Source: Thermoplasmata archaeon
Lineage (GTDB): Archaea > Thermoplasmatota > Thermoplasmata > Lutacidiplasmatales > UBA184
Assembly (NCBI GenBank): GCA_046704665.1
Contig: JBJKRJ010000025.1
Location: forward strand, 17,772 to 81,771
DNA: 64,000 bases
Direction: 5' to 3'
This document shows positions 14,676-50,495 of this stretch, one piece after another; positions within the stretch are counted from its first letter, which is position 1; each line of letters opens with the position of its first letter. A model generated the notes under the pieces. The model worked only from the letters and a program-made list of their open reading frames with translations, was not told the DNA's origin and did not search any database. Made by a program: the position numbers and the translations under genes.

Positions 14676-15416
14676 CTATCTACCCTTCGGAGCCCCGTCC
14701 CCCCCGTTCGTGTCCCGGAGGACCCCATCGACGAGCAGGGCATGGATCGAGAAGCCGCGGAGCATCTGGTCCCACATCTGCTTGCGGACCTCGGGAGTGC
14801 GGGCGAAGCCGGCGACGATCTGCCCGATCCACTCCGAATGCTCGACGTCGGCGACGACATGGAGATTGTAGTATTCGAGGTGGGCCTCGTCCACGTGATA
14901 GTGCTGCCGAAACGCCGGGAGGAGCCGGGCGCAGAGCTCGACGTTCGGCGGCTCAGAGGAGCCGGCCGCGGAGACGTAGAAGGTGTTCACGCGGTTCGTG
15001 TACAGAAAATCGTCGATGGCCACCATCGTGCTCGGAAGGAGGGGAGCCGACTGGACTTCGGTCCGGGGTACGCCGATCCCTTCGGCGAACCGGAGCCAGA
15101 GCTCCGGATGGCCGGGCGCTTTCCCCTTCGGGTCGCCGGCCTCCTCGACCAGCTGGTCGAGGATCATGCGTCGGTAGCGGTCGTTCTCCGGGTCCCAGGA
15201 GCAGTTCGAGAACCGCTCCGCCATCGCGATCGGCACCGACGAGAGCCACGGATAGAACTGCTTCACCCACTCCTGGACCACCGGAAGAGGAACCTCCCCG
15301 CGTTCCAGGCGATGGAAGAACGGGTGCGTCTTGAACGGGTGGTGCGCCATCTTGTACCTCGTCAGCTCGTCGCGGAACGCTTCGCCCTCGAAGCGTACCC
15401 AGGGTGGTTCGACCAT
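14676..15416 (-). CDS. Heme-oxygenase-like fold protein of the TenA/PqqC/CADD type (putative di-iron oxidase)
   Basis: 246-aa ORF with HPFFHRL, a QLVEEAGD...GHPELWLRF pattern and a C-terminal VVADVEHSEW acidic/His motif, typical of PqqC/CADD-like proteins. Confidence 0.7.
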   Translation of the reverse strand: MVEPPWVRFEGEAFRDELTRYKMAHHPFKTHPFFHRLERGEVPLPVVQEWVKQFYPWLSSVPIAMAERFSNCSWDPENDRYRRMILDQLVEEAGDPKGKAPGHPELWLRFAEGIGVPRTEVQSAPLLPSTMVAIDDFLYTNRVNTFYVSAAGSSEPPNVELCARLLPAFRQHYHVDEAHLEYYNLHVVADVEHSEWIGQIVAGFARTPEVRKQMWDQMLRGFSIHALLVDGVLRDTNGGDGAPKGR

Positions 15417-18121: not shown

Positions 18122-19456
18122 TCAGGTCGCCTTCGACGCCGCCGACCGGCCCCGTCCGCCGCGCGAGGGGACGCCGTTCCGGCTCTTCGCGCGTTCCTGG
18201 AACTGTTCGGACTCGGTCGATCCGTCCATCGCGAGGGTGGACGTGAGGCCGCCCGAAAGCACCTGGGAGACATCGTCGTAGTAACCGGCTCCGACGAACG
18301 ACTGGTGCTTGACCGCGGAGTACCCTTCCTCCTCGGCCCGGAACTCCTCTTCCTGGAGCTCGGAATACGCCCGCATCCCGCTCTCGGAGTAGGCCCGCGC
18401 GAGCTGGTACATCGAGAGATTGACGGCGTGGAACCCCGCGAGCGTCACGAACTGGAACTTGTAGCCCATCCCGGCGATCGTCGACTGGAACTCCGCGATC
18501 GCCTCGGGGGAGAGCTTCTTCCGCCAGTTGAACGACGGGGAGCAGTTGTAGGCGAGGAGCTTTCCGGGGTACTCCTCGTGGATCTCCCGCGCGAACCGTT
18601 CGGCCTCTTCGAGGTCCGGCCCGGCCGTTTCGAACCAGAGAAGGTCCGCGTACGGAGCGAAGGCGAGCCCTCGGGCGATCGCCATGTCGAGGCCACCCGT
18701 GATCTCGAAGAACCCCTCCGTCGTTCGCTTACCGGTGAGGAACGGGGCGTCCCGCGGGTCGACATCGCTGGTCAGGAGCTTCGCGCTCAGCGCATCGGTA
18801 CGGGCGATGAGGACGGTCGGGACCCCCAACACGTCGGCGGCGAGGCGGGCCGCCCAGAGCTTCTGAGAGAACTCGCGGGTCGGGACGAGGACCTTGCCGC
18901 CCATGTGCCCGCACTTCTTCACCGAGGCGAGCTGGTCCTCGAGATGGAGCCCGGCGGTTCCGGCGTCGATCATGGCCTTCGTGAGTTCGAAGACGTTCAG
19001 GTTCCCGCCAAAGCCAGCCTCGCCGTCCGCCACGATCGGGGCGTACCAGTAGACCGCGGAACTTCCCGCCGCGTGCTGCTTCTCGTCCTCCCGGCGGAAC
19101 GCGTTGTTGATCCGACGGACGAGGTGCGGCATCGAGTCGGCCGGGTAGAGGCTCTGGTCGGGGTAGGTGGCGAGGGCGTCGTTGGCGTCCGCCGCCACCT
19201 GCCACCCGCTCGCGTAGATCGCCGAGAGGCCGCCCGCGACCATCTGGACCGCTTGGGTCCCGGTCATGGCGCCGAGGGTGGGGATGTATGGCTCGGTGTG
19301 CAAGAGCCGCCAGAGGCGCTGGGCGCCGAGCGTAGCAAGCGTGTGCTCGATCGAGATCGACCCCCGAAGGCGCTCCACATCCTCGGGTTTGTACGGTCGC
19401 ACGATCCCGTTCCATCGTTCGCTCGTCTTCCAGTCGTAACCCACGACCTCTCTCAC
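18122..19456 (-). CDS. aceA: Isocitrate lyase
   Basis: 444-aa ORF with [20 protein letters not shown] and the ICL signature [14 protein letters not shown]. Confidence 0.93.
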
Positions 19457-19650
19457 GGTAGGCCCCTCCCGGGCGGTTCGCCCATAGTAGGGTAGACGAG
19501 GTCCGTGATAAACTCTTCAAGAGCCGGTCTGCGGGGTCGAACACCGATTCAATGGAGCTCGAAGTCAGATCGACCTCCGGCGCCCACTTCGACCGGCCCG
19601 TCGTTCCTCCGGCATCCGTCGGAGCTGGATCGGGCCGAATGTCGTCCCCC

Positions 19651-22461
19651 CTACGGAGGAGAGGAGTTCGCGGTGCGCTTGCCCGGCACGGGTCCCGGGA
19701 AGATGTCGTAGACATAGTCGTGGGCCTCCAGTGCCGAGCGATGGAGCTCGCCCCGCGCGACCGCCTCGACGAGCTGGGCTCGCGATGGCCGTCCTCGCTC
19801 GTCCCGGAAGAGGGGAGCGCCGGCGCGGTCGACGTAGTAGATCGCGTCCAGGATCTGGGCGGCTTCCTCCGGCGAGCGGTCCGCGATGAGGAAGAGGACC
19901 CGGGGACTGTGCTGGACATAGAGGGAGGAGAGCAGCTGGCGGTGCAGCACGTCCATGATGATCGGGGCCTTCGAGCGCAGGAACCGTGGGGCCCCGGCCT
20001 CGATCTCGGCCCGGGCGATGGACGGCTCGATTCCCGCCGCCCGAGCGATCTGTTCGGCCGCCTCTTCGTACGTCAGCTCCTTTTCGAACGACCGACCTCC
20101 GCCGTAGGCCCTCGACAGGATCTGCTGCACCTGTTCCAGCTGACCTGAGAAGGTGGGGTCCGCCGGGAGATCGGGGGGCACCGCCGGGCCGGCGTGGGTC
20201 GTACCGGAAACCTGCCCGGAGGACGAGAGGTCCCGGCGCGCGGAAAGGAAGGTGCGAAGGCCCCTCTCGATCGACTCCTCGCGTGCGGACGGGTGGGAAG
20301 GGTGCTCTCCCTCTGGGTCGACCCGGGCCGAGATGACGATGCGCGCGGCGGCCAGCCGATCCCGATCCTCGAAGAACGCCTTGGTCCACTCTCCGTGCAG
20401 TCGCCAGAGTTCCTCGAAGAGCGGAGGCGTCAGGGCCGTGCCCGACGGGACCCGGACCGCGTTCTCGGCCGGGAAGACCCCGTCCTCCGTCTCACCGGGT
20501 CCCTGGAACCACCCGTCACGGGAGACCGGAGCTCGATGATGCAGCACCGCCCAGAGCCAGCCTACGAAGATCCGATACGTTGCGAGGTCGTTCATGAACC
20601 GCACGACTCGGCCGGGAACGCTCCCGTAGTCGTCGATCGCGGCGGCCAGGTTCCCGTTGAGAAGCTGATAGCCGTAGTTGGCCGCCATGTAGAATGCATG
20701 CTGGACGTTCTCCGCCGTGATCTCTCCCTCTTCTACGTCGTACAGGTGGTCCCAGAGCCCCCGACCATCCCCGAAGGTGTTCGCCAGGAACTCCTCGGGG
20801 GAGGTGAACTGGTCGGGCGAGATCACCCACGGAGTGATCCGCCCCTCCCCGTCCAGCAGCCCGAGTCCCGACAGGAGCTCCCGTTCCGCGTCGGTGAGCC
20901 CGCTGGTCACGCGGGGTGCCACCCGTTGCCCTTCGCTCTCCTCCCACACCACGGGGGCGTCGATCATCGCCTGGAGCTCCTCCCACGGGGCCCGAAGCGG
21001 TGCATTGCCGGCCCGCACGTACTCTTCCTCCGGGCTCGCCACCCAGCTCTGCCGGTAGGTGTCGTAGAGCCGACCCTCGACGGTCCCGCCCTCCACGTCG
21101 GCGAGGCTGATCCTCTGGCCGGGCTCCGGTGCGTGGGGAGCGACGAAGATCAGGCCGATCAGGCGCTCGCGCAGTTTGTCCGTGGCGATCGCCCGGAGCG
21201 CCACCGGGTTGTGGCGGTCGCGACGGTAGGGGTCGTTCTTCGGATAGAGCATCACCGCCGCCATTCCCCCGATCGGGGCGCCGTGGGTCTGCGCGCCGTC
21301 CTTCATCCCCGCCATCAGGTTCAGCAGGGCATTGTACCGCTGGTAGGCCATCATGTGGGGTGAGGTCATCCCCATCCGTGGTCCGCTCTGGGGATCGGGG
21401 AGCGCCCGTTCGTCCTTCCACATCTCGATGAGACTGCCCGTGTAGTCCCAGCGCCCCACGTTGGTACCGATAAGCCAGTACCGCCAGGTCCAGAGCACGA
21501 CCGGTAGGTACCGGCCGGCGTTGGCCTCTTCGTAGAGGGCTTTGAACTTGATGAGGGACCCGGGGACCGTCGCGCCGAGCAGTTGCTCGAGCCTCCAGAC
21601 AAGGCGCGCGACGAGGAGGGCCTCGAACGCGCTCTGGACCTTGGGCTGATAGAAATAGAGCCCACGGCCGGCGCGCGATAGGGAGCCCACATCGTTGAGG
21701 GCGTGGAGGACGAAGTCCACGATGGCGGCGCGGGCCGGCCGGCCATCGACGGTGACGTGTGTCGTGACGAGGTGGATCCCCGGGACCCGGTGAAAGCTGG
21801 TCGGCCAGTCCGACGGTGATCTCTGGATCCCGTAGGTTCGGGCCCGGCCCTTCTTGATGACGGTCGTTTCCCGGACCTCGCGGGCGAGGATGCGCCGTTC
21901 GTTCTCCCGGGAGAGGAAGAGTCCGACCGGGACATCTCCCGAAGTCCCGAACGGAACATAATCGGCGGGGGCAGCGTCCTCGTCATCGGGCCCCATGGTG
22001 GCGGCCACGTCGGCGTTGATCTGCTTGATCGCCATATCCAGCGGATGCCACGGACCGGTGAGCTCGAGGCCGGGATGGCGCAGGGGATGCGCATCGTCCG
22101 GGATCGGGACCCTGTCGTTGAGCCTCCAGGCCCTCTCGGTCGATCGGCCGAACAGATTGTCGATCAGGCCCTGAACGATCTCCCGGTAGCTGCGGAGCTC
22201 GCCGGTCACGGCATCTTCGAAGGTCTCCCCCCATCGGGGAAACGCGTACCGCTCCCGCGTGGGGATCTCGGAAGAGAGCAGCTCGCGACGCCGACGCAGG
22301 GCCTCGGTGATCGCGGGATCGAACTCCCGGGTGAGCTCCGCGATCGTCTCCTCCACGTTGATACGGCGATCGCCCACGACCTTGGTGCCGAAGAGCTCGG
22401 GAAACGCGTGAGCGACCTCGCGGGCCACGGTGGCGCGAGGTCGACTTTCCCCACCGGACAT
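19651..22461 (-). CDS. Divergent long malate-synthase-like protein (936 aa)
   Basis: It contains NVGRWDYTGSLIEM (compare the GRWDY motif of malate synthases) and FMNDLATYRIFVGWLW (compare EDAATAEISR..WQW). It lies immediately upstream of aceA on the same strand. About 250-300 C-terminal residues have no motif I recognise. Confidence 0.65.
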   Translation of the reverse strand: MSGGESRPRATVAREVAHAFPELFGTKVVGDRRINVEETIAELTREFDPAITEALRRRRELLSSEIPTRERYAFPRWGETFEDAVTGELRSYREIVQGLIDNLFGRSTERAWRLNDRVPIPDDAHPLRHPGLELTGPWHPLDMAIKQINADVAATMGPDDEDAAPADYVPFGTSGDVPVGLFLSRENERRILAREVRETTVIKKGRARTYGIQRSPSDWPTSFHRVPGIHLVTTHVTVDGRPARAAIVDFVLHALNDVGSLSRAGRGLYFYQPKVQSAFEALLVARLVWRLEQLLGATVPGSLIKFKALYEEANAGRYLPVVLWTWRYWLIGTNVGRWDYTGSLIEMWKDERALPDPQSGPRMGMTSPHMMAYQRYNALLNLMAGMKDGAQTHGAPIGGMAAVMLYPKNDPYRRDRHNPVALRAIATDKLRERLIGLIFVAPHAPEPGQRISLADVEGGTVEGRLYDTYRQSWVASPEEEYVRAGNAPLRAPWEELQAMIDAPVVWEESEGQRVAPRVTSGLTDAERELLSGLGLLDGEGRITPWVISPDQFTSPEEFLANTFGDGRGLWDHLYDVEEGEITAENVQHAFYMAANYGYQLLNGNLAAAIDDYGSVPGRVVRFMNDLATYRIFVGWLWAVLHHRAPVSRDGWFQGPGETEDGVFPAENAVRVPSGTALTPPLFEELWRLHGEWTKAFFEDRDRLAAARIVISARVDPEGEHPSHPSAREESIERGLRTFLSARRDLSSSGQVSGTTHAGPAVPPDLPADPTFSGQLEQVQQILSRAYGGGRSFEKELTYEEAAEQIARAAGIEPSIARAEIEAGAPRFLRSKAPIIMDVLHRQLLSSLYVQHSPRVLFLIADRSPEEAAQILDAIYYVDRAGAPLFRDERGRPSRAQLVEAVARGELHRSALEAHDYVYDIFPGPVPGKRTANSSPP

Positions 22462-28700: not shown

Positions 28701-29381
28701 ATGGTACCCCGTGCCCTCCTCCTCGACTTTGGGGGAACGCTGGTAGGTTCCCGTGCCGCCTTTCTCCCTCTCTTCCAGGAGGCCGGTCGACGGACCGGGG
28801 TGCGCGTCGATTGGTCGAGGTTCTTGAGGGCCAACGAGGAGGTCTGGGAGGACCTCTGGCCGGAGGCTCCCCGGTTACTCGGCAGGACGCCTTCCTTTGC
28901 GGACATCGTTCACGCACGTGCACTCGAGAGGGCTGATGCGACCGGCCCGATCGAGAAGATGGTTCAGTGCATTCGAGAGGAGGCGTTATCCCCCCGCTGG
29001 TCCCCACCCTTCACCGAGTCCGAAGAGGTCCTCCGGCACCTTCGCACGGCCGGCCACCGCGTCCATCTCCTCTCGAACAACGTCGACTACCTCCCCATCC
29101 TTCTGAGGAATCTCGGCTGGTCGGAGCTGTTCGAGACCGTGACCTACTCCCAAGAGATCGGCATCTCCAAACCCGACGTGCGGCTGTTCCGTGAGGCTCT
29201 TCGAAGAGCCGGGTGTGAACCGCGAGACGCGATTCACGTGGGCGATTCATGGGAGGCGGACTACCTGGGTGCCAAGCGGGCGGGCCTGAGAGCAGTCTGG
29301 TTGAATCGCGGCGGGGTGGTTCCACCGGAACCGTGCGAGATGATCCGCGACCTTCGTGAGATCCCCCAACTGATGGAGTAG
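28701..29381 (+). CDS. HAD-superfamily hydrolase (subfamily IA-like)
   Basis: LLDFGGTL (DxG/DxT motif I variant), LLSNN (motif II), SKPD and HVGDSWEADYLGA (motifs III/IV). Confidence 0.85.
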   Translation: MVPRALLLDFGGTLVGSRAAFLPLFQEAGRRTGVRVDWSRFLRANEEVWEDLWPEAPRLLGRTPSFADIVHARALERADATGPIEKMVQCIREEALSPRWSPPFTESEEVLRHLRTAGHRVHLLSNNVDYLPILLRNLGWSELFETVTYSQEIGISKPDVRLFREALRRAGCEPRDAIHVGDSWEADYLGAKRAGLRAVWLNRGGVVPPEPCEMIRDLREIPQLME

Positions 29382-29574
29382 GAAGAGGCGGGCCGGTCTC
29401 GGAGCGGGCTCCTTTGGCCAGCTCTGCACGAGGAGCCCCCGCCCGTAACGGAAAGGAATCCGCGGCGATTACGAAGCGTCGCACTCGTCTTCGGAACTCC
29501 ACACAGGAGTCCGTCATGGGACGGACAGCTAGAGAAAGAATCGGCCTGCCGATGGGTCATGCGCCGATCGGGAA

Positions 29575-29649
29575 TGGGCCCAGCCGGATTTGAACCGGCG
29601 ACCTCCCGGTTATCAGCCGGGTGCTCCAGCCTAACTAAGCTATGGGCCC
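29575..29649 (-). tRNA. tRNA-Ile (anticodon GAU)
   Basis: The reverse complement reads GGGCCCATAGCTTAGTTAGGCTGGAGCACCCGGCTGATAACCGGGAGGTCGCCGGTTCAAATCCGGCTGGGCCCA. It has a 7-bp acceptor stem, a 5-bp anticodon stem with loop CTGATAA, a GTTCAAATC T-loop and discriminator A. No CCA is encoded. Confidence 0.93.
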
Positions 29650-29998
29650 ATCGGGGGGGTCTTTCGTTTCGGGGTGCCCAGCACAGCGGGCGTATTAGAG
29701 CAGCACCTCCACCACGCCGAACCGTCCACCGCTCGTTCCACCGTCAGCGAAACCACCTCGAAGGACGGACTCACCTTGAGATCAATCCGTCCCTTCGCGC
29801 GCCTGCATCGCACCGGGACCGGAACGGTAGGTCCCGCGGGATCTGACCCTGATCCTCACCCTGAATATTCGGATCGCACCGTGCGTGGGATCGCGGCGTG
29901 CTGGGCACCGTCCGCGACCGCGACGAGTTCTTCACCCTCCCGAAGGGCCCGTGTGGACTACGGTCCCGCGCTCCCGTGAGCGCTGATATGGAGTGTTT

Positions 29999-31066
29999 AT
30001 GTCTCCCAGCCCAGTTCGTACGCTGGTCGTGAGCGATCTAACGAGGGCGGCCGCACGGCGACGCACCGGAGAGCTCTCCGAGCCTCCCGTGCGCACGCTG
30101 CACGCAGCGTTCGCCGAGGATGTCCGCAAGGGCCTCACGTCGACACCGAAAGCGATCCCACCACGATGGCTCTACGACGCAGTCGGTTCCACGCTGTTCG
30201 AGGCGATCACCCTCCTTCCGGAGTACTATCTTACGAGGATCGAGGAGGAGATCCTTAGGCTGTACGCCTCAGACATCGCCGAGGCGACGATTCGCGTGAC
30301 GTGCGTGGTCGAGTTCGGCAGCGGCAGTGGACGCAAGACACGGCTCATTCTCGAGCCGCTTCTGGCGCGCGAGCCGGAACTGGTCTACCGACCGATCGAT
30401 ATCTCCGCCGACGCGGCGGCCCAGGCCACGCACGGTCTCACCGTGACGTTACCCCGGCTACGGGTAGAGCCCCTCGTGGGCACGTACGCCGAAGGTATCG
30501 CGGCGCTCGCCCGCGACCCTTCGCGAAAGCTGGTGATGTTCATCGGTTCCAGCCTCGGAAACCTCGATCCCGACGCGGCCTCCCGCTTCCTTCAGGCGGT
30601 CCGTTCGACCTTCGGCCCGGACGATCACCTTCTCCTCGGGGTTGACCTCGAGAAGGACGCTCCCACGATCGAGCGTGCGTACAACGACTCCATCGGCGTC
30701 ACGGCCGCCTTCGCCCGGAACGTCCTCGCGCGAATGAATCGCGAGCTCGGCGCGGATTTCGACCCGACCGCCTTCACGATGCGCGCCGTCTATCGCGCGG
30801 ACGCGCGTCGGGTCGAGATCCACCTCGTGAGCTTGCGCGCGCAACGTGCCCGCCTCCACGACCTTGACCTTGAAGTGTCGTTCGCGGAAGGCGAGACGAT
30901 CCACGTGGAGAATTCCTACAAATTCACCTCCGAGAGCATCGAGGCCCTCGCCCGGGCGTCCGGATTGGGTGTCGAACGGAAATGGACCGACGGAGATCGC
31001 TGGTTCGCGCTCTACCTCATGCGACCGGTCGAGGGGAGCCCCGCGGGGTCGAGCAGGGGAGGATGA
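29999..31066 (+). CDS. egtD: L-histidine N-alpha-methyltransferase (EgtD/EanA family)
   Basis: LYDAVGSTLFEAITLLPEYYLTRIEEEIL, VEFGSGSGRKTR, FIGSSLGNL, LLLGVDL, AYNDSIGVTAAF and ENSYKF all match EgtD-family motifs. The start is uncertain (GTG 29993, ATG 29999 or GTG 30029). Confidence 0.88.
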   Translation: MSPSPVRTLVVSDLTRAAARRRTGELSEPPVRTLHAAFAEDVRKGLTSTPKAIPPRWLYDAVGSTLFEAITLLPEYYLTRIEEEILRLYASDIAEATIRVTCVVEFGSGSGRKTRLILEPLLAREPELVYRPIDISADAAAQATHGLTVTLPRLRVEPLVGTYAEGIAALARDPSRKLVMFIGSSLGNLDPDAASRFLQAVRSTFGPDDHLLLGVDLEKDAPTIERAYNDSIGVTAAFARNVLARMNRELGADFDPTAFTMRAVYRADARRVEIHLVSLRAQRARLHDLDLEVSFAEGETIHVENSYKFTSESIEALARASGLGVERKWTDGDRWFALYLMRPVEGSPAGSSRGG

Positions 31067-31539
31067 CGCAGGAACTACGAGCCACCCACGGGCCGCGCAC
31101 AGTGGCCGAAGAGGCCGCGGCCCTTCGCCAGAGAGAAGAGGCCGTCGTTCGAGCCTTCGAGACACTGAAGGACCGGATGGACGCGTATCGATATCTCGTG
31201 CAGCTCGCGCACGCCCTGCCTCCCTTTCCCGAGAGCGACAAGACGGAAGAGACCCTGGTCCCCGGGTGCACGGCCGAGCTCTGGCTCAAGGCGAGCATGC
31301 GCCAAGGCCGGGTCCAGTTCGCGGTCGATAGCCCCTCCCTGGTCGTGAAGGGCCTCGCGGCGATCTTGATGGAGGTCCTCTCGGACAGCACGCCGGAAGC
31401 GATCGTCGGGGCGGACCTCGAGTTCATCAAGACGATCGGTCTCGAGCACCAGCTCTCGGCGAGCCGATCGAACGGGCTCGCCACGATGGTGCAGCGCATG
31501 CGCGGGTTTGCCGCGGCGCACGCGGGGCGGACAGAATGA
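31063..31539 (+). CDS. SufE/CsdE-like sulfur-acceptor protein
   Basis: ATG at 31063 (ATGA overlap with the egtD stop, GGGGAGG upstream). The product contains LVPGCTAELWL (the conserved persulfide-carrying Cys context of SufE) and the ...LSASRSNGL... tail. Confidence 0.8.
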   Translation: MTQELRATHGPRTVAEEAAALRQREEAVVRAFETLKDRMDAYRYLVQLAHALPPFPESDKTEETLVPGCTAELWLKASMRQGRVQFAVDSPSLVVKGLAAILMEVLSDSTPEAIVGADLEFIKTIGLEHQLSASRSNGLATMVQRMRGFAAAHAGRTE

Positions 31540-32810
31540 GCGGGATCCGAGAGGTCACGACGAACGAGGTGCGCGGAGCTATGGGCGACGGGAAGTCCGT
31601 GATCGTCGATACACGTTCGTCCGATACCTACAACGGCTGGGCGCTCTCCGGCGATCCTCGGGGCGGGCATATCCCTGCGGCGCGCAGCCTGCCGGCCCGG
31701 TGGACCGACTTCATCGACTGGCCCGAGATGGTCGAAGGGAAGGGTCTCGAACCGACCGCGCGCACGATCCTCTACGGGGAGGGTGCGGCCGCCGTCGCGC
31801 ACTACCTCGGACGTCTGGGGTTCGCGAATCTGAGCACGTATCCGGGCTTCGCCGACGAGTGGCTGCCGGACTCCACGCTACCGCTCGCTCGGCCCCTTCG
31901 CTTCGATCACCTGGTCCCCCCCGGGTGGCTGGCGGCGGCCCTCCGTCGGGAGAGAGGGGAGTTCCCGCCCGGCGCAAACGGGCTCGTCATCGGTCATTGC
32001 CACTATCGCAACGAGCACGACTATCGAATGGGGCACATCCCTGGCGCGGTCTCGCTCGACACGCTCCTGCTTGAGACGCCCACTACCTGGAACCGACGCA
32101 CGCCGGATGAACTCGGTCGCGCACTTCGGTCTCTCGGCATCACGAGCACGACGAGCGTGGTCCTCTACGGCCGGGACTCGGTCGCCGCGGTCGATGCCCC
32201 GTTTCCGGGGTCGAGCGCGGGGCAGCTCGCGGCGATGCGTGTCGCATTCATCCTGATGTACTCGGGAGTAGAGGACGTCCGGATTCTGAACGGCGGGCTC
32301 AAGGCGTGGGAGGACGCGGGCCACGCGACCAGCACCGACCCGTCGGCGCCCTCGGAGGCTAGCGACTTCGGAGTGCCCATCCCGGCCCGGCCGGGCATCT
32401 GTCACGACCTGACCGAAGTGAAGGAGCTGCTCGCCTCGAAACGGGGCGCGCTGGTCGACAGTCGCAGCCGACCCGAGCACGAGGGGCTCGTCAGCGGCTA
32501 TAACTACATCCAGAAGAAAGGCGCCATCCCGGGCGCCGTGTTCGTGGCGGGCGGGACCGATGCCTACCATATGGAGACCTACCGTAACCCGGACGGGACC
32601 GCGGCGGAACACGAGGGGATCGCCCGGGCATGGACCGCGCATGGCCTGCAACGGGACGCGCCCGCCTGGTTCTTCTGCGGCACCGGTTGGCGCGCGAGCG
32701 AGGCGTTCTGGAACGGCTGGCTCATGGGGTGGCCCGAGGTCGGCGTCTATGACGGAGGGTGGTTCGAGTGGAGCAACGACCGTGCGAACCCCGTCGTTCG
32801 GGGCCCCTAG
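31536..32810 (+). CDS. Multi-rhodanese-domain sulfurtransferase, EanB-like (candidate hercynine sulfurtransferase)
   Basis: ATGA overlap with the SufE-like stop. There are rhodanese repeats (GHIPAARSL, GHIPGAVSL, GAIPGAVF) and one catalytic loop, FFCGTGWRASE, about 40 residues from the C-terminus. The size (424 aa) and position next to the EgtD homolog match the EanA/EanB arrangement. Confidence 0.75.
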   Translation: MSGIREVTTNEVRGAMGDGKSVIVDTRSSDTYNGWALSGDPRGGHIPAARSLPARWTDFIDWPEMVEGKGLEPTARTILYGEGAAAVAHYLGRLGFANLSTYPGFADEWLPDSTLPLARPLRFDHLVPPGWLAAALRRERGEFPPGANGLVIGHCHYRNEHDYRMGHIPGAVSLDTLLLETPTTWNRRTPDELGRALRSLGITSTTSVVLYGRDSVAAVDAPFPGSSAGQLAAMRVAFILMYSGVEDVRILNGGLKAWEDAGHATSTDPSAPSEASDFGVPIPARPGICHDLTEVKELLASKRGALVDSRSRPEHEGLVSGYNYIQKKGAIPGAVFVAGGTDAYHMETYRNPDGTAAEHEGIARAWTAHGLQRDAPAWFFCGTGWRASEAFWNGWLMGWPEVGVYDGGWFEWSNDRANPVVRGP

Positions 32811-32935
32811 GGTCGCACCACGGAAGGTAGACGGTCGCTCGCCGTTCCCGTCCCAGCCGCTAAGCGCGGTGGCACCCTCGTCCCCTCCGGTCCCTCTTCC
32901 CTCAGTACCTCGCAGGAGCGAGCGCGCAGCGAATG

Positions 32936-32945
32936 TTCTCGAGAA
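32936..32945. repeat. Perfect 10-bp palindrome TTCTCGAGAA in the putative promoter region
   Basis: Read directly. It lies 28-37 nt upstream of the ATG at 32973. Confidence 0.5.
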
Positions 32946-32972
32946 TCGTCTCCGGGCTCTTCCTCAACCCTT

Positions 32973-33215
32973 ATGCGACACGAAGGGCTCCGACCGCCCG
33001 TGGATCCTCGGGAGCGGGAGCTGCTCACCGGCATGGGTAACTGCTACGAGGCGTGCGGCGAGGATTTCGAGGGCACCGTCGAGATGGTCGCGAACTCGCG
33101 GCACCGCACGGTGGACGACGTGAAGGCAACGCTCGAGGCGATGCGACTCCACTACGGCGCGGACGCAGAGTACCTGACCCTGCGCGGACGGCTCCCGGCG
33201 GAGTTCCCCCTGTGA
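32973..33215 (+). CDS. Small hypothetical protein (80 aa)
   Basis: ATG-initiated ORF with balanced, helix-like composition, 25 nt upstream of the next gene on the same strand. No family recognised. Confidence 0.45.
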   Translation: MRHEGLRPPVDPRERELLTGMGNCYEACGEDFEGTVEMVANSRHRTVDDVKATLEAMRLHYGADAEYLTLRGRLPAEFPL

Positions 33216-33240
33216 CGACCCGGCGGCCGACCGGGGGCCG

Positions 33241-34134
33241 ATGACGCAGTGTCCGGCGTGTCTCGAACGCATCGAGGGCGACTCGTACGAGGGGCTGGCG
33301 CGGCACCTCGTCGTCCGGGCGGGGGCGAGCGACTCCGACCACGTCCGCTGGCTGAACCAGAACCTGACCCGGAAGAAGGCACCGGCCGAGGAGCTCGCGG
33401 GACCTCTCGCGGAGTACTTCCGAATCGGCGACGGCGGTCTCTCCCACTGGATCAAGACGAGGTTCATCGCCAAGTTCTTCGGAAAGGTGCCGCACCCGTT
33501 CGTCGCGGCCCTCCAGCATCCGAGCCGGGCGACGCTGCTCGGCTACGTGATCGAGCACCAGCACTTCCTGCGGCAGTGGGTCCGATCGTGTGCGTACATT
33601 ACTGCACGGACCGACGCCCCCGAGGTGGCCCGCTACGAGCTCGAGAACCTCTCCACCGAGTTCCTAGGGTTCGGTCACGGCCAGCCGTCCCATTACGAGC
33701 TCCTCCTACGGATGGGGGAGGGCCTGGGTGTCGATCGGGCCCGCATCCTCGCGACCGAGCCGCTCCCGGCGACCGCCCGCGCGATTCGGGCGTGGAACGA
33801 GATCGCAAGGGACCAGCCGTGGGTCTCCGCCATGGCGGCGATGCATGGCCTCGAGCTGATCGCCCACCGGGACCTCGTCCGGGAGGGCGCGTCGGTGCAC
33901 TATTTCGACCCGACGATCCTTTCGGGCGAGGAGATCCCTCCCGCCGCCCGGGACTTCCTGCGTGAAGGCTACGAGGCCGACGTCGGCCATGCGGACGAGG
34001 CCCTCCGACTCGTGACGCGCTTCGCCGGCGCCCAGGGTGCGATCGAGGAGACCCAGAGCGTCTTTCTGCGGTCGATCGACCTCTTCGACGACTACCTGAT
34101 CGCCCGTCTCGAGCGGGCGAACGACTTCGCATGA
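33241..34134 (+). CDS. Heme-oxygenase-like (iron-containing redox enzyme / PqqC-CADD-like) protein with an N-terminal CxxC extension
   Basis: 297-aa ORF. The N-terminal CPAC is followed by helices carrying candidate di-metal ligands (IEHQHF, ELENLSTEF, SHYELL, MHGLELIAHRD, EGYEADVGH). Confidence 0.6.
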   Translation: MTQCPACLERIEGDSYEGLARHLVVRAGASDSDHVRWLNQNLTRKKAPAEELAGPLAEYFRIGDGGLSHWIKTRFIAKFFGKVPHPFVAALQHPSRATLLGYVIEHQHFLRQWVRSCAYITARTDAPEVARYELENLSTEFLGFGHGQPSHYELLLRMGEGLGVDRARILATEPLPATARAIRAWNEIARDQPWVSAMAAMHGLELIAHRDLVREGASVHYFDPTILSGEEIPPAARDFLREGYEADVGHADEALRLVTRFAGAQGAIEETQSVFLRSIDLFDDYLIARLERANDFA

Positions 34135-34427
34135 AGCGCAACTATACGGGCTGCGCCATCTGCGACTCGACCTGGGGTGACGTCTGGGCCGAGGTCGAGG
34201 GCGAACGGATGTTCTTCTGCTGCGAGCTCTGTGTCACTCAGTTCCGTGGGCTGATCGACCGCATCAAGCAGGAGACCGGCTGGCGCACCGTCGAAGGGAT
34301 CGAGATCGCGGGGGACCGACGCGGGAGGACGTGCGTCGCCTCAGGTCGGGGCGAGACGGCGAGGTTCGCGTTCGCGTTCAACTCGGACGGGGTCGTGCGT
34401 CGGTTCGAGCGTCTCTCCCCCGGCTGA
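34131..34427 (+). CDS. Cys-rich small metal-binding protein (CAIC...CCELC), reminiscent of the Thermoplasma Ta0938 family
   Basis: ATGA overlap with the upstream gene. 98 aa with CxxC and CCxxC motifs. The family assignment is from memory and uncertain. Confidence 0.55.
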   Translation: MKRNYTGCAICDSTWGDVWAEVEGERMFFCCELCVTQFRGLIDRIKQETGWRTVEGIEIAGDRRGRTCVASGRGETARFAFAFNSDGVVRRFERLSPG

Positions 34428-34720
34428 CCCGCGGGGCGGATCGGCTTCCCGGTCTGACCCTTCACGGCCACGCGCGGTGGGGGTTTCGGTCTCGCTGATG
34501 GGTCCGTTGAGCTCCGAGAACGGTGTCTCCTACGATCTCGGTCCGACGTAGGAACGGGGGAGGAATGGGTCCGTCGGGAAGAGCCCCCGACCTGGGGACC
34601 AGTGGCCCGGAGCGGGAAGAACGGCAGGCCGAAGAAGAGGGGCCCTCACGGCTCCGTCCTCGTGACCGTCTAGGGGGGAGGCACGAGACCCTCCAATCCT
34701 CGAGGAGCCTCTTCGCAGAT

Positions 34721-35161
34721 ATGAACCTTGGAGACCGTCTTCTTACGATGACAGGCCCGACGCGTCGGGCACTCTCCCGCATCTACACATTGCTCGCGAT
34801 CGGGGTGCTCGTCCTTGTGGCGCTCGTTGCCTTCCCTTGGCTCATTACACCGTACTACTCCGGCCCTACCACCTCCATAAACGGAACCGCGTACTGTTAC
34901 GAACCGGTATACCTAGACCCTCCAGGTCCGTGGCACTACCTGGCGTGGGGGTTTGCGTTCTCCATAACATCGAGTAGTCCGTCCCCGTCCTATGGGGGCG
35001 TCTACTGGAACATCTCGGTGACGGAACCACAAGGAGTGACCTATTCGGGCGGGACCGGGTGTACGGTCTGCCCGGTAAACCAGACGCTCGAGTGGTTTAC
35101 GCCCGACGGTCTGGCGGGCGTCTCGTTCTCGACCCTGACGACCCTCTACGTCGAGAAGTGA
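34721..35161 (+). CDS. Small membrane-anchored (signal-anchor) extracytoplasmic protein
   Basis: Internal ATG at 34721 of ORF 34523..35161. The product is MNLGDRLL...RRALSRIYTLLAIGVLVLVALVAFPWL followed by a Ser/Thr/Gly/Tyr-rich domain with 3 Cys. The DNA is lower in GC than its surroundings. Confidence 0.5.
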   Translation: MNLGDRLLTMTGPTRRALSRIYTLLAIGVLVLVALVAFPWLITPYYSGPTTSINGTAYCYEPVYLDPPGPWHYLAWGFAFSITSSSPSPSYGGVYWNISVTEPQGVTYSGGTGCTVCPVNQTLEWFTPDGLAGVSFSTLTTLYVEK

Positions 35162-35382
35162 CTCGTTTTCGTCTGCTCGATAAGGGACTGTTTCGACATG
35201 GTCCGAAGGGCAACCTTCCCTTCCATCGAACGGACGTTCGAACCGGAGAAATCACTCACCCTCGGCAAGTGGCCGAAGCGTGTGGATGCCCTTGTCGAAC
35301 CGGGACGGGCCTATAGGTAAGGCGCCGAGTACGTCAGCGCCACTCGGAGCGTGTAACTGACGCTTCCTGAGCCTCCCGAGGT

Positions 35383-35931
35383 CTACACGCCCAGACCATA
35401 GGTACCGCACGACGGGACTCCGAACGTCACGCTGCCACTGCTACCCTGATGACTCCAGAGAGTCGCCCCATCCGGAGCGGTCAGCGTGACGTTAGTTAAC
35501 GGGTAGCTGCTCGCGTACGAAACCGTGGCCGAACCCGACGGACACAGGAGAAAGGAATCGTTCTCCTGGCCCCCACTGCCCAACTGGGCCTCCTCGGTCT
35601 ACCCCTTGGTTTGAGGAAAGGGAACGGTTGCCAGCAGAACTACGACGGTGACCGCGACCGTTCCCGCGCCGGTCAATTCCCATAGCACTCTTCGATTTGG
35701 CTTCCGGGGGGCCTGCGTTGCGTACAGGGACTTCGGGCCCACGCTGTCCGGAACCATCCCCGGAAGGAGCCCCATCCCGAGGGCCACCGACTGTTGTCGT
35801 AATAACGGGACGGTCCGATCCGTCGTTTGGAAGTGGCACCGGAGCCTTCGGAGCGCACGGAACACCCTACCGTTTCCCGTGGCGAAGAGTCCCATCACGA
35901 CCAGCGGACCCGTGTCCGGAACCGCGACCAC
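35383..35931 (-). pseudogene. Small membrane-anchored protein gene interrupted by an in-frame TAG (or two adjacent small ORFs)
   Basis: ORFs 35599..35931 and 35383..35583 are in the same frame, separated only by TAG (35599-35601) plus 5 codons. The upstream part ends with a TM anchor (GAGTVAVTVVVLLATVPF; plausible ATG at 35775). The downstream part is a beta-rich ectodomain with 2 Cys. Confidence 0.35.
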
Positions 35932-36027
35932 CGCGATCCAGAGCGACGGCTGCCGACGCGGTCGCCCTTGGATAGGTCCAGAACGGATCAGTTCCGCCCA
36001 CCGGTAGGCGGACCACCTCGCCGAAGC

Positions 36028-37116
36028 CTATGCGGACTCGGGGGCTGTCGTGAGGGCCCGTGCGGTCGGTGGCGGCGAAGAAGGGACCGTGGGTTCTCCC
36101 GCGTTCCCGCCGTGAGTCCACGAGAACCCCCGCGGGAGGTCCGAACCGGCCGCCGCCGACGACTCGAGGAGCGAACCCATGTCCCGAAGGTTCTCCGGGT
36201 GAACGACCGTCCCGGAGAACGTCCGCACCCACTCGTCCACGGCGACCATCCATCCGGCGCCCTCCGTAGTCCCGGTCGGACGGAAACGGGTGTGCGAGCG
36301 CAGCCAACCCACGACCCTCTGGGGAAGTTGGTCGAGGGGCCGGTCGAAGACGACATGCAGTCCCATCGAGCGCGGCTCTTGCTCTTCCTCGAGGCCCCGA
36401 AGGAAGACCAGAAGCCCCTGGGGCGTGCTCGCGGTGGGGGTTCGGGGTCCGGGCAGGGAGCGACCGGATTCAATGTCGAGAAGGAATCCTGCCAGCGCCG
36501 GCGGCAAATGCGGTCCGTCGGTGCTCCCGTGGACCGCCGAGATCCAGTGCGGGGGCGTCGTTCGTCCCCCCCGGGGCTCGGACGGGGTCGCCCGGACCCC
36601 GAAGACGATCGCGTACGCCGGAGGCCCGACGTACATGCCGAGCAGGTCGATGCGCACGCGACGACCCGGCGCCGTCCGGGCGAACCAGACCGGCCGATCG
36701 CTTCCGGCGAGTCCGCGCGCTTTCCAGATGCGATGGATGACCATGTGATTGACCCCGAGCACGCGGGCGAGCGTTCGCGTGGTCCACGGGTTCCCGTTCG
36801 GCGCCGACTCCATCGCGGTCAGCTGAACGATCCGCTCGACGAGACCCTTCGAGACGCCCGACCGGCCGCCCGAGCGCGGCGCGTCCCGCCGGACCCCTTC
36901 GAGACGGTGCACCGCGAACCGGCGACGCCATCGACCCACGGTCTCGGGATGGATCCTGAGCGCCCTCGCGATCTCAGTATTGGTGCTCCCCGAGGAGGCC
37001 CCCAGGACCACGCGCGCCCGTACGGAGAGACGGTCCTCCGCCGGACGGTTCGTGGCCCAAGCTTCGAGCCATGCCCGCTCGAGCGGCGTCAGGGAGATCG
37101 ACGAGGCCCGGCGCAC
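36028..37116 (-). mobile_element. Degenerate IS630-family transposase homolog (HTH plus eroded DDE domain); no terminal inverted repeats found
   Basis: 362-aa ORF (GTG start). The N-terminus SLTPLERAWLE...NTEIARALRIHPETVGRWRRRF...APRSGGRS is a clear IS630 HTH region. The segment where relatives have LVLCVDEKSQ reads IVFGVRATPS (first catalytic Asp lost). HVVFDRP and WMVAVDEW retain the second Asp and the Glu. Confidence 0.7.
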
Positions 37117-39805: not shown

Positions 39806-39919
39806 GGAGGTCCTGCAAGGCGGCCGAGCACCCCACGGATGGTACAAATAGCTAGTCGTTCACTCCGCCGGGGGGTGCAACGGTCCCTCGCGGGGCGTTC
39901 CCCCTGGGAGCAACGCTCG

Positions 39920-40456
39920 ATGTCACGGGAAGAAGGGACCTCCTCGGAGCCCTCCGGGCGGGAGTCGTTGCCCGGCACGGTCCACCGACTGCACCGCAAA
40001 CCGGAGACCGGGGAAGAGCATGGCCTGCCGAAGTCGCCCGTTCCGGAGGCGATCCTGACCCGTGCGGGTGTGGAGGGCGACTTCAATCGGTACCGACACG
40101 AATCGAAGCACGACGACCCGGACATGGCGGTCCTCCTCGTGCCGCTCGAGACCCTGGAGGAGCTCCGTCGCGAAGGGTGGCCCGTCGCGCCGGGCGACCT
40201 CGGGGAGAACATCACGACCCACGGGATCGCCTACGACGAGTTCCGCCCGGGCCGAACGTTCGTGGTCGGCGAGGCGGAGCTGACGGTGGCGAAGGCCTGC
40301 ACCCCGTGCGAGAATCTCTATCTGCTCCCGTACGTGGGCGAGACGCGGGGCCCGGAGTTCCTCAAGACGATGCTGGGCCGACGCGGATGGTTCGCCCGCG
40401 TCGAACGGCCCGGAAGGGTCAGGGTCGGAGACCCGGTGCGGCCGCGGCCGACCTAG
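39920..40456 (+). CDS. MOSC domain-containing protein (YiiM-like)
   Basis: GVEGD, the PGDLGENIT segment and a conserved Cys in KACTPCENL are typical of MOSC domains. The start is uncertain (ATG 39920 or upstream ATG 39839). Confidence 0.75.
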   Translation: MSREEGTSSEPSGRESLPGTVHRLHRKPETGEEHGLPKSPVPEAILTRAGVEGDFNRYRHESKHDDPDMAVLLVPLETLEELRREGWPVAPGDLGENITTHGIAYDEFRPGRTFVVGEAELTVAKACTPCENLYLLPYVGETRGPEFLKTMLGRRGWFARVERPGRVRVGDPVRPRPT

Positions 40457-49460: not shown

Positions 49461-50495
49461 TCAGCGGAGCCAGATCAGATGGCTGTCCCCGAACTCGTGC
49501 CATAGGTAGCCTGCATCGACCGCCGCTCGGTACGCCCTCCGCACCCGCTCGATCCCCGCGAAACCGGCGAGGAGTGCGAGATGGGTCGAGACCTCCTCGT
49601 GGAAGCCGGTCAGGAGGCCGTCCAGCGACCGGACGGGTCGATCCGGTGCGATGTAGAGTCGCGTGAACCCGCGGCTCGGCCGAAGACCGCCGTCGTCGGT
49701 CGCCGACTCGAGCGCCCGCACGACGGTCGTCCCGACCCCGACGACGCGCCCGCCCCGCTCCCGGGCCGCGCGGATCTCGGCAACGGTCGTCGCCGGCACC
49801 TCGAACGGTTCGGGAAATACGGGCGGGTTCCACGGGCCGGCGTCCCCGACCTCGAGGCTCGAGACCCCCGCGTGCAGGAGGATGGGCGCCACGCGCACTC
49901 CGGCGGGCGCGAGCCGGTCGACCACGCGTCGCGTGAACGGCCGCCCCGCGCTCGGCATCTCGGCGCTCCCCGGCACCCGGCCGAAGACCGTCTGATATGC
50001 GGGGAGAGGATACTCCGACGCGAGGTAGCCGTACCGGATCGGACGGCCGAGGTGCGCCATCGCCGGTCCTAGGTCGCGATCGGCGCGGAAGAATCCGAGG
50101 CGGGGGATCCCGGGGAACTCGGCGACGTACCGGCCGGGGACCCCTCCGAGCTCGACCTCGTCGCCCGGGGAAAGCGGGAGCGGCCCGGGCCGCGCGAAGT
50201 CCCAGCGAGGTTCGATCAACCACAGCTCCCGGCCGTACGCGGTGGAGATGCTCGCGCGGAAGTCGCCGAAGTCGCACCGCGCCGGGAGGCTCGCGGCCAC
50301 GGTCGCGCTCTCGTTGACGACGAGCAGGTCCCCGGCGCGCAGGAGCTCGGGGAGTTCGGAGAATCGATGGTGGTGCTCCCCCGTGGCGTCGCTCACCAGG
50401 AGGCGAATCCCATCGCGTGGAACCCCCCGGTCCTCGGGCGTATTGGTGGCTCCGAGCTCCCGAGGCACCGGGAAGCCGAGGGTTGGCCCCTTCAC
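49461..50495 (-). CDS. QueA-like protein (S-adenosylmethionine:tRNA ribosyltransferase-isomerase family)
   Basis: GTG at 50495 forms a GTGA overlap with the SDR stop (alternative ATG at 50510). The product has LLVVNES, QTVFGRVPGSAEMPSAGRPFT, ILLHAGVSS, GTTVVRALES and HEFGDSHLI-type QueA motifs. Confidence 0.8.
   Translation of the reverse strand: MKGPTLGFPVPRELGATNTPEDRGVPRDGIRLLVSDATGEHHHRFSELPELLRAGDLLVVNESATVAASLPARCDFGDFRASISTAYGRELWLIEPRWDFARPGPLPLSPGDEVELGGVPGRYVAEFPGIPRLGFFRADRDLGPAMAHLGRPIRYGYLASEYPLPAYQTVFGRVPGSAEMPSAGRPFTRRVVDRLAPAGVRVAPILLHAGVSSLEVGDAGPWNPPVFPEPFEVPATTVAEIRAARERGGRVVGVGTTVVRALESATDDGGLRPSRGFTRLYIAPDRPVRSLDGLLTGFHEEVSTHLALLAGFAGIERVRRAYRAAVDAGYLWHEFGDSHLIWLR

Follow-up and report, generated by a model that had tools for sequence, protein, structure and literature searches.

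We report a three-gene operon in an uncultured Thermoplasmata archaeon of soil or peat that, with a probability we put at roughly 0.6, serves oxygen-independent ergothioneine biosynthesis, the SufE-like protein encoded in its middle acting as a dedicated sulfur shuttle from a cysteine desulfurase to EanB. The operon lies on the + strand at 29999-32810 of the window (the whole 64 kb stretch of DNA analysed here) and consists of eanA, a sufE-like gene and eanB, linked by two ATGA start/stop overlaps (Table 1). Beyond this archaeon, the genomic linkage of SufE and SufS genes to eanB is wide and non-random.

Results

Gene layout of the locus

Table 1. Features of the eanA-sufE-eanB locus, by position in the window
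Feature	Position	Strand	Description
tRNA-Ile(GAT)	29574-29650	minus	flanks the eanA upstream region
upstream intergenic region	29651..29998	+	tRNA-Ile(GAT) to eanA; presumably promoter-bearing
eanA	29999..31066	+	355 aa from ATG; predicted EgtD-family SAM-dependent L-histidine N-alpha-methyltransferase, hercynine (trimethylhistidine)-forming
sufE-like	31063..31539	+	158 aa; contains a SufE/CsdE domain; Cys69 as putative persulfide-carrying residue
eanB	31536..32810	+	424-aa three-domain rhodanese-like ergothioneine synthase homologue; catalytic Cys381 by alignment

The initial annotation had named these three genes and their overlaps from the letters of the DNA, and both points stand: the identities are borne out by matches to TIGR03438 and PF02657 and by full-length EanB matches, and start and stop codons overlap at both junctions (ATG 31063-65 with TGA 31064-66 between eanA and sufE, ATG 31536-38 with TGA 31537-39 between sufE and eanB). 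A GTG is found 6 nt upstream of the eanA ATG at 29999, and the 158-aa start of the sufE-like gene is supported because five homologues are exactly 158 aa long, with the N-terminus MT in all. An Rfam scan of 29300-33300 returned no RNA family besides the tRNA.

The window has 46 predicted ORFs. In keeping with the initial annotation, none of them matched the EgtB, EgtC or EgtE/aminotransferase-V families, nor FGE-sulfatase/DinB, amidotransferase or aminotransferase-V, the signature of the aerobic EgtABCDE and Egt1-2 routes. Judged by its neighbouring genes, the host looks aerobic or facultative, so "oxygen-independent", as the locus had been labelled, holds for the chemistry and not for the lifestyle.

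EanA

The first ORF is confirmed by its similarities as a predicted EgtD/EanA histidine N-alpha-methyltransferase. It scores 347 bits against the NCBIfam EgtD equivalog TIGR03438 (cut-off 290.9), 354 bits against PF10017 and 236 bits against the M. smegmatis EgtD structures, and the EasF model, at 178 bits, falls under its cut-off of 205. When it is aligned to 4UY7, the residues that we take to bind histidine in M. smegmatis EgtD (F47, Y56, N166, Y206, T213, M252, E282 and S284) are all kept with the exception of M252, which is His.

The SufE-like protein

The product of the second gene matches PF02657 at 136.5 bits (cut-off 27) over positions 2-119 of the 121-position domain. In its motif LVPGCTAELW, Cys69 falls on the persulfide cysteine (Cys51) of E. 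coli SufE, GCQSQVW (1MZG, 62 bits), in an alignment that the initial annotation had proposed, and this cysteine is invariant within the window clade. The protein stays under both the SufE (NF006792, 80.2 vs 160) and the CsdE (TIGR03391, 87.5 vs 136.4) equivalog cut-offs, and its persulfide loop reads GCTAELW with DSP (GC[TS]AELW across the clade, with Pro at the position of E. coli D74), as compared to GCQSxVW with DSD in about 140 other SufEs; we therefore regard it as a SufE-domain protein that is neither a canonical SufE nor a CsdE. Modelled with AlphaFold2 from six aligned sequences, the protein reached a mean pLDDT of 47, too low for a reading of the fold.

The EanB homologue

The third protein has three rhodanese stretches (PF00581) and a single CGTGWR loop, at Cys381. 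Its match to 6KTV pairs residues 5-422 with 37-456 at about 428 bits and 47% identity (6KTV/6H98, C. limicola EanB), as against 235 bits and 37% identity for E. coli YnjE and at most 79 bits for TST/MST; the NCBIfam MST model gives 69.8 bits, its cut-off being 250. A grouping with the ordinary thiosulfate/3-mercaptopyruvate sulfurtransferases, which would have undone the initial assignment, is thus not what the scores indicate.

The active-site residues of C. limicola EanB have their equivalents in the window protein (C381 for C412, Y322 for Y353, E314 for E345, T383 for T414, R386 for R417). The catalytic Cys and Tyr353 had been put forward as the discriminating test for EanB, but they do not serve as one: together with Glu345, Thr414 and Arg417 they are necessary but not discriminating, because E. 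coli YnjE has all of them. YnjE, which is loaded by IscS, is the closest non-EanB homologue and shares the active-site loop with the window protein, but it has Thr at the position of Tyr375, which the window protein keeps (Y344), has no linked EgtD and is annotated for molybdopterin synthesis. Assignment to EanB is based, at the level of sequence, on overall similarity, Tyr375 and the EgtD link, and the conversion of hercynine to ergothioneine is the predicted activity.

The window protein also departs from C. limicola EanB. The non-catalytic cysteines C116, C184, C339 and C370 are missing, the last of them from the whole window clade though kept in about 95% of the EanBs sampled (best 80 genome and best 80 metagenome loci), and Y411, a Tyr in 157 of those 160, is Phe in the window clade.

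SufE genes at eanB loci

A survey of eanAB loci for an intervening SufE-like gene had been proposed, and we looked for SufE genes in the best 80 of more than 546 eanB loci in GTDB representatives and, as an independent replication sample, in the best 80 metagenome loci. A SufE gene lies beside eanB in 50 of these 160 sampled loci, from many phyla, often with SufS (a SufS partner is found in 21/160). Among the best 80 genome loci, 29 have SufE adjoining eanB with or without SufS: eanB then sufE (14), eanB-eanA-sufS-sufE (7, including the archaeal Thermoplasmata-group MAGs L022 and L075), a convergent eanB/sufE pair (4), eanB-sufS-sufE (3) and eanB with minus-strand sufS and sufE (1); one further locus reads eanB-eanA-sufS and is ended by the contig end. 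The best 80 metagenome loci gave SufE in 21 and SufS in 8. In L075 and L022 both SufS and EgtD were confirmed by NCBIfam (TIGR01979 589 and 539 bits, cut-off 475). The reverse control, in 79 ordinary SufE loci, returned neither eanB nor egtD (0/79).

SUFBD_core matched only 2 of 138 neighbouring ORFs of the SufE/SufS-positive eanB loci, from which it follows that these SufE and SufS genes stand outside Fe-S assembly operons. Gemmatimonadota carry eanB-sufE pairs with unrelated flanks and no egtD within 6 kb, which ties SufE to EanB and not to EanA. On the other hand, the flanks of 110/160 sampled eanB loci hold no SufE, so SufE is not obligatory.

A neighbour-joining tree of SufE domains appeared to place the eanB-linked SufEs in a single clade. 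We put this down to sampling, since ordinary Bacteroidota SufEs come as near to the L075 copy (50-59%) as other eanB-linked ones do.

A rare clade with its own gene order

L001, L002 and L003, the sole close relatives among the matches listed, carry the same eanA-sufE-eanB unit, with SufEs 77-96% identical. The genes flanking these units are unrelated, which marks the three genes as a conserved module. In most of the sampled loci eanB precedes eanA, and the order found in the window belongs, among the loci sampled, to its own small clade only. No further window-clade SufE was found in 185,579 GTDB species representatives, where the best match (41%) was an ordinary proteobacterial or cyanobacterial SufE without eanB, nor in JGI metagenomes; the clade amounts to only five 90%-identity clusters among 5.8 billion. 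A metagenome scan with EanB likewise gave no window-clade member (maximum 54%). The divergent-loop SufE was found only in the eanA-sufE-eanB context.

The initial annotation knew of no description of the arrangement; the gene order does appear peculiar to this clade among the loci sampled, but SufE beside eanB is common, though apparently unremarked. In the open-access literature searched, a scope to which the primary EanB papers do not belong, there was no SufE-EanB link. What is unusual here is, on the sequences compared, the gene order and the divergent SufE loop.

Discussion

A putative persulfide relay to EanB

In the proposed pathway every chemical step is our inference, as are the way the sulfur travels and which desulfurase supplies it. 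EanA would trimethylate histidine to hercynine. Cys69 of the SufE-like protein would accept a persulfide from a cysteine desulfurase whose gene lies in another part of the genome, and hand the sulfur over to EanB either directly or via a short-lived low-molecular-weight persulfide; EanB would hold it as a persulfide on Cys381 and insert it at C2 of the imidazole ring. Such a relay would couple ergothioneine synthesis to cysteine and not to free polysulfide. The suggestion of the initial annotation that SufE is a candidate sulfur relay for EanB gains support from comparative genomics (50/160 against 0/79). The SufS profile found no match anywhere in the 64 kb window, nor on L001 or L003, and with no desulfurase nearby the relay is incomplete within the window.

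Several features count against the relay, namely the many sampled eanB loci without SufE (110/160), the divergent SufE loop, the equivalog scores below cut-off, the lack of Cys370 in EanB and its Y411F replacement. There is also a structural objection. The first EanB reconstitution used IscS, and later work, as summarised in PMC9103826, reinterpreted the donor as polysulfide, a competent direct donor to EanB in vitro, Cys412 being argued to end a 13 A tunnel out of reach of the IscS cysteine. That objection, raised for IscS, could apply to SufE too.

We hold a broader version of the proposal more tentatively, at somewhat less than even odds. In roughly one in three lineages with EanB, its physiological sulfur supply may be a persulfide relay from cysteine desulfurase to SufE, and the SufE of the window clade (GC[TS]AELW, Asp74 to Pro) may have been re-tooled, in an archaeon, as a dedicated EanB partner with a non-SufS donor, beside an EanB without Cys370.

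Other readings of the locus

The alternative that survives best, though we think it unlikely, is an indirect one, in which SufE drains persulfide from the desulfurase and so raises a local pool of polysulfide or low-molecular-weight persulfide that loads EanB via the tunnel, SufE and EanB never making contact. In E. coli SufE enhances SufS turnover, which speaks for such a role, as does the finding that no EanB Cys position shows a clear association with SufE linkage among the sampled EanBs (with SufE or without, about 95% of them keep C370). The in vitro competence of polysulfide and the reportedly buried active-site Cys point the same way (PMC9103826). However, the tight translational coupling of sufE with eanB, like the eanB-sufE pairs that lack sufS, is what one would sooner expect of proteins that bind each other, and a freely diffusing product would have no need of a dedicated carrier that co-evolves and whose loop is altered.

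Considerably less probable is that the EanB homologue is a YnjE-like sulfurtransferase that feeds some other thio-cofactor pathway; SufE would then be its usual partner, and the betaine made by the EgtD homologue would have a different purpose. The residues common to E. coli YnjE are no proof of EanB chemistry, Y411F and the lack of C370 mark the window clade, and in many cases no egtD lies within 6 kb of an eanB-like gene. Against this stand the bit scores (about 428 to EanB vs 235 to YnjE), the Tyr375 that YnjE replaces by Thr, the translational coupling, within the operon, to an EgtD equivalog that keeps its histidine-binding residues, and a natural EanB-EanA fusion in L039.

It is very improbable that the gene between eanA and eanB is the cell's housekeeping SufE of Fe-S (SUF) assembly, placed there by chance. 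The eanB-linked SufEs do not form a separate subfamily by similarity, as the Bacteroidota sequences 50-59% identical to the L075 copy illustrate, and sufBD may neighbour one locus, L081, or as many as two in all; but chance does not sit well with the one-sided counts from the eanB and SufE loci, with a window devoid of sufS and, in its 46 ORFs, of sufB, sufC and sufD, with a three-gene unit conserved despite different flanks, or with the restriction of the divergent-loop SufE to that unit. Least probable of all is a reverse or salvage role, in which EanB and SufE withdraw sulfur from ergothioneine or act as a buffer for the EanB persulfide, SufE receiving the sulfur for other uses: the operon contains a committed biosynthetic methyltransferase, and no ergothionase-type catabolic genes were seen among the 46 ORFs.

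Comparison with known systems

The nearest characterized counterpart of the proposed shuttle-fed pathway is the EanA/EanB pair of C. limicola, with which the window shares an EgtD-type methyltransferase and a three-domain rhodanese-like synthase, 47% identical over its full length. The window differs in the translationally coupled SufE-like gene in between and in its host, an apparently aerobic soil archaeon. The eanB-eanA-sufS-sufE and eanB-sufE loci (for example L075, Thermoplasmatales; L022, Methanomethylophilaceae; Fibrobacter; Spirochaetia; Gemmatimonadota) resemble the window in having, outside any sufBCD operon, a SufE gene close to eanB and in the same orientation, but theirs is a canonical GCQSxVW/DSD SufE downstream of eanB, often with its own SufS, whereas the window clade has a GC[TS]AELW/DSP SufE between eanA and eanB and no SufS nearby. 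The SufS-SufE and CsdA-CsdE systems of E. coli have the same SufE domain, with the persulfide cysteine aligned; the window, unlike these, lacks a neighbouring desulfurase and offers neither SufBCD nor TcdA as acceptor, the proposed acceptor being rhodanese-like.

A parallel in logic is offered by MES, the third ergothioneine synthase, of Caldithrix abyssi, in which cysteine-derived persulfide reaches the hercynine-thiolating enzyme by an internal relay from a cysteine desulfurase fused to it (PMC9516567). The catalytic module of MES is, however, unrelated (metallopterin-dependent, of the DMSO-reductase family), and its desulfurase is fused and is not a separate carrier.

Implications

The presence of SufE/SufS genes in about a third of sampled eanB loci hints at the source of EanB sulfur in cells, and the eanB-sufS-sufE linkage points to cysteine as that source in vivo. 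With a coupled carrier gene in the window clade, and recurrent eanB-(eanA)-sufS-sufE operons in bacteria and archaea, the question of how EanB is loaded becomes testable with defined proteins. EanB-based ergothioneine production relies on added polysulfide or host desulfurases (PMC11767532), and co-expressing SufS and SufE as a matched pair is an evident way to engineer it. The "anaerobic" ergothioneine route is present in a soil Thermoplasmata archaeon with aerobic-looking neighbour genes, and if the broader version of the proposed relay is true, the view of free polysulfide as the EanB donor would need revising.

Results

Three forward-strand ORFs joined by two ATGA start/stop overlaps were described at 29999-32810 in the initial annotation, and both overlaps, at the eanA/sufE and sufE/eanB junctions, are genuine (see table). 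The first ORF had been taken for an EgtD-family histidine methyltransferase, an assignment upheld by scores of 347 bits against the NCBIfam equivalog TIGR03438 (cut-off 290.9) and 354 bits against PF10017; it matches M. smegmatis EgtD at 236 bits and keeps the histidine-binding residues F47, Y56, N166, Y206, T213, E282 and S284, with His at the M252 position.

The third ORF aligns along its entire length with the C. limicola EanB of known structure (428 bits, 47% identity), as compared to 235 bits for YnjE and at most 79 bits for classical rhodaneses and 3-mercaptopyruvate sulfurtransferases. When C. limicola numbering was mapped by alignment onto the window protein, 83 homologues and E. coli YnjE (NC_000913), the window protein proved to have equivalents of C412, G413, T414, R417, Y353, E345 and Y375. 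The catalytic Cys and Tyr proposed as a check are thus both present, but YnjE also has them, together with E345, T414 and R417, and the check is therefore necessary rather than discriminating; Y375, a Thr in YnjE, is the only one of these residues to set EanB apart. The probable EanB membership of this ORF rests on overall similarity, on Y375 and on its place in one operon with an EgtD equivalog, and the EanB-EgtD link is reinforced by a natural fusion of the EanB and EgtD/EanA domains in one 749-aa ORF (L039:881-3127, Porphyromonadaceae MAG contig CAYXQX010000554.1). The EanBs of the window and its close relatives are atypical in carrying Y411F and in lacking all four non-catalytic cysteines of C. 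limicola EanB, among them C370, which is kept in about 95% of 160 sampled EanBs and is Gly here (G339 in the window).

The middle ORF contains a full-length SufE domain (PF02657, 136.5 bits) and its Cys69, named in the initial annotation as the conserved persulfide Cys, aligns onto the persulfide cysteine of E. coli SufE; its score lies under the curated equivalog cut-offs for both SufE and CsdE. The persulfide loop of this clade reads GC[TS]AELW, with Pro at the position of E. coli SufE Asp74, as compared to GCQSxVW and DSD in about 140 other SufEs, with or without eanB linkage, and the clade forms a separate long branch in a neighbour-joining tree. A collection of 5.8 billion protein clusters contains no more than five close relatives, each 158 aa long and 77-96% identical, the next-best SufEs being ordinary bacterial ones of at most 42% identity in unrelated contexts. 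No member was found in the JGI metagenomes or among 185,579 GTDB species representatives, despite the many related Thermoplasmata among the latter. An apparent single clade of eanB-linked SufEs in the tree was rejected as a sampling artefact, the SufEs resembling that of the Thermoplasmatales locus L075 being ordinary Bacteroidota genes.

The eanA-sufE-eanB arrangement is present, between differing flanking genes, in every relative with a readable contig (L001 and L002 from soil metagenome, and L003, GCA_046704505.1), and this order occurs in none of 160 sampled eanB loci (80 GTDB, 80 metagenome). Both surveys are samples and not censuses. GTDB representatives were scanned with an EanB alignment, and six-frame ORFs of eanB loci were searched with profiles for SufE, SufS, EgtD and EanB; among the best 80 GTDB loci (46-55% identity), SufE is encoded in 29 and SufS in 12. 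These genes are arranged as eanB then sufE (14 loci, chiefly in Gemmatimonadota but also in Ignavibacteria, Acidobacteriota and Bacteroidota), convergent eanB and sufE (4), eanB-eanA-sufS-sufE (7, in Omnitrophota, Fibrobacter, Spirochaetia and the archaeal L022, Methanomethylophilaceae, and L075), eanB-sufS-sufE (3), eanB with sufS and sufE on the minus strand (1), and eanB-eanA-sufS where the contig ends (1). NCBIfam confirms EgtD in L075 and L022, and likewise SufS (TIGR01979, 589 and 539 bits, respectively; cut-off 475). In the independent metagenome sample of 80 loci, SufE was found in 21 and SufS in 8. As a reverse control we took the 80 SufE loci closest to the L075 SufE, which are ordinary Bacteroidota SufE genes; with the L075 contig itself set aside, none of 79 has eanB or egtD within 6 kb. 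SUFBD_core was matched by only 2 of 138 neighbour ORFs in the 30 SufE/SufS-positive eanB loci, and the eanB-linked SufE/SufS genes lie outside Fe-S assembly operons.

Ten Gemmatimonadota eanB-sufE pairs (L008, L014, L031, L035, L041, L043, L046, L069, L073, L074) lie between unrelated genes (in L008 those for TetR, PAS, M1 peptidase and SNF-family transporter proteins) and lack an egtD within about 6 kb; SufE therefore travels with EanB, not EanA. For these EanBs, either EanA is encoded elsewhere, or hercynine is imported, or the substrate is another one.

In six loci (L075:9942-11339; L282, L048, L273, L024, L298) a pyridine-nucleotide disulfide oxidoreductase adjoins the eanB cluster. Its best NCBIfam match is dihydrolipoyl dehydrogenase, with mycothione reductase also similar, and the enzyme may serve to reduce a disulfide or persulfide.

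Features of the window in and around the eanA-sufE-eanB unit
Feature	Position	Strand	Remarks
Chorismate synthase	7952-9040	-	Identity of 66-75% to some 30 Thermoplasmata MAGs from soil, peat and permafrost
Second Haem_oxygenase_2/TenA-like gene	14676-15416	-	
Isocitrate lyase beside 936-aa protein	18122-22461	-	Malate-synthase TIM-barrel domain in the latter
tRNA-Ile(GAT)	29574-29650	-	348 nt upstream of operon, opposite strand
eanA (ORF1)	29999-31066	+	EgtD-family methyltransferase; PF10017, TIGR03438
sufE-like (ORF2)	31063-31539	+	SufE domain, PF02657
eanB (ORF3)	31536-32810	+	Three rhodanese stretches; C. limicola EanB match
TENA/THI-4/PQQC-family protein	33241-34134	+	N-terminal C2H2 zinc finger; just downstream of eanB
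Ta0938/TRASH-like small metal-binding protein	34131-34427	+	ATGA overlap with preceding gene
HTH_23/HTH_32 homeodomain-like ORF	36028-37116	-	Domains transposase-typical
MOSC-domain protein	39839-40456	+	Divergent from ABC-2 transporter operon; about 7 kb from eanB
QueA-type protein	49461-50573	-	Queuosine_synth, 218 bits

To judge by its chorismate synthase, the window belongs to an uncultured Thermoplasmata archaeon. Its G+C content is about 68-73%, with a local dip to 0.635 at 34001-36000, and the HTH_23/HTH_32 ORF may be an insertion element near the cluster. The pairing of the TENA/THI-4/PQQC and Ta0938/TRASH-like genes is not kept in L001 or L003. The QueA-type gene may be a horizontal acquisition, because queuosine synthesis is mainly bacterial. 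The MOSC family is linked to sulfur handling on the molybdenum cofactor. A sub-threshold Rfam match to Plastid-ycf2 (+ strand, 29574-29650) merely reflects the strand complementary to the tRNA.

Discussion

The three genes very probably constitute an ergothioneine (EanA/EanB) operon. The linkage of eanB to SufE and SufS genes, with its controls, supports on genomic grounds the proposal in the initial annotation that the SufE-like protein may be the sulfur relay to EanB, and we put the probability of such a function, direct or indirect, at about 0.8. From gene identities and linkage we infer a pathway in which EanA would produce hercynine, a desulfurase encoded elsewhere would persulfidate Cys69 of SufE, and SufE would load Cys381 of EanB; EanB would then thiolate hercynine with Tyr322 in the acid/base role that PMC10903977 gives to Y353.

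Direct transfer from SufE to EanB is reasonably likely. A substantial alternative is that SufE merely boosts desulfurase turnover and that EanB receives its sulfur from a small persulfide or polysulfide; we retain it because, in published work summarised in PMC9103826, polysulfide can donate directly to EanB in vitro, and a 13 A tunnel ending at Cys412 is judged to keep IscS from reaching that residue. A precedent for cysteine-fed sulfur delivery is offered by MES, the third ergothioneine synthase, with its fused desulfurase and internal persulfide relay (PMC9516567).

The EanA/EanB pathway is already known, and recent reviews give IscS or polysulfide as the only donors described for EanB. Neither the embedded carrier nor the wider SufS/SufE-eanB linkage seems to have been described before: among about 8.3 million open full-text papers and preprints, a body with the original EanB papers outside its scope, none names EanB together with SufE, and nothing relevant was found on ergothioneine with SufE or SufS, in keeping with the earlier view of the three-gene arrangement as undescribed.

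None of EgtB, EgtC, EgtE, SufB/C/D or a class-V aminotransferase was found among the 46 predicted window ORFs, which agrees with the initial annotation as to the Egt genes, and a profile search of the 64-kb window gave no SufS match. Among the neighbouring genes are two of the glyoxylate shunt, here in a Thermoplasmata archaeon, for isocitrate lyase and a malate-synthase-like protein; others encode the E1-beta/E2/E3 components of a 2-oxoacid dehydrogenase complex, an acyl-CoA dehydrogenase and Dps. This repertoire is aerobic-looking, so "oxygen-independent" names the chemistry and not the organism. C370 of EanB has been reported dispensable in vitro, and a relay role in vivo is possible. The window thus brings together a divergent carrier, marked by its clade-specific loop, and an EanB that lacks C370, and it has no desulfurase gene nearby.
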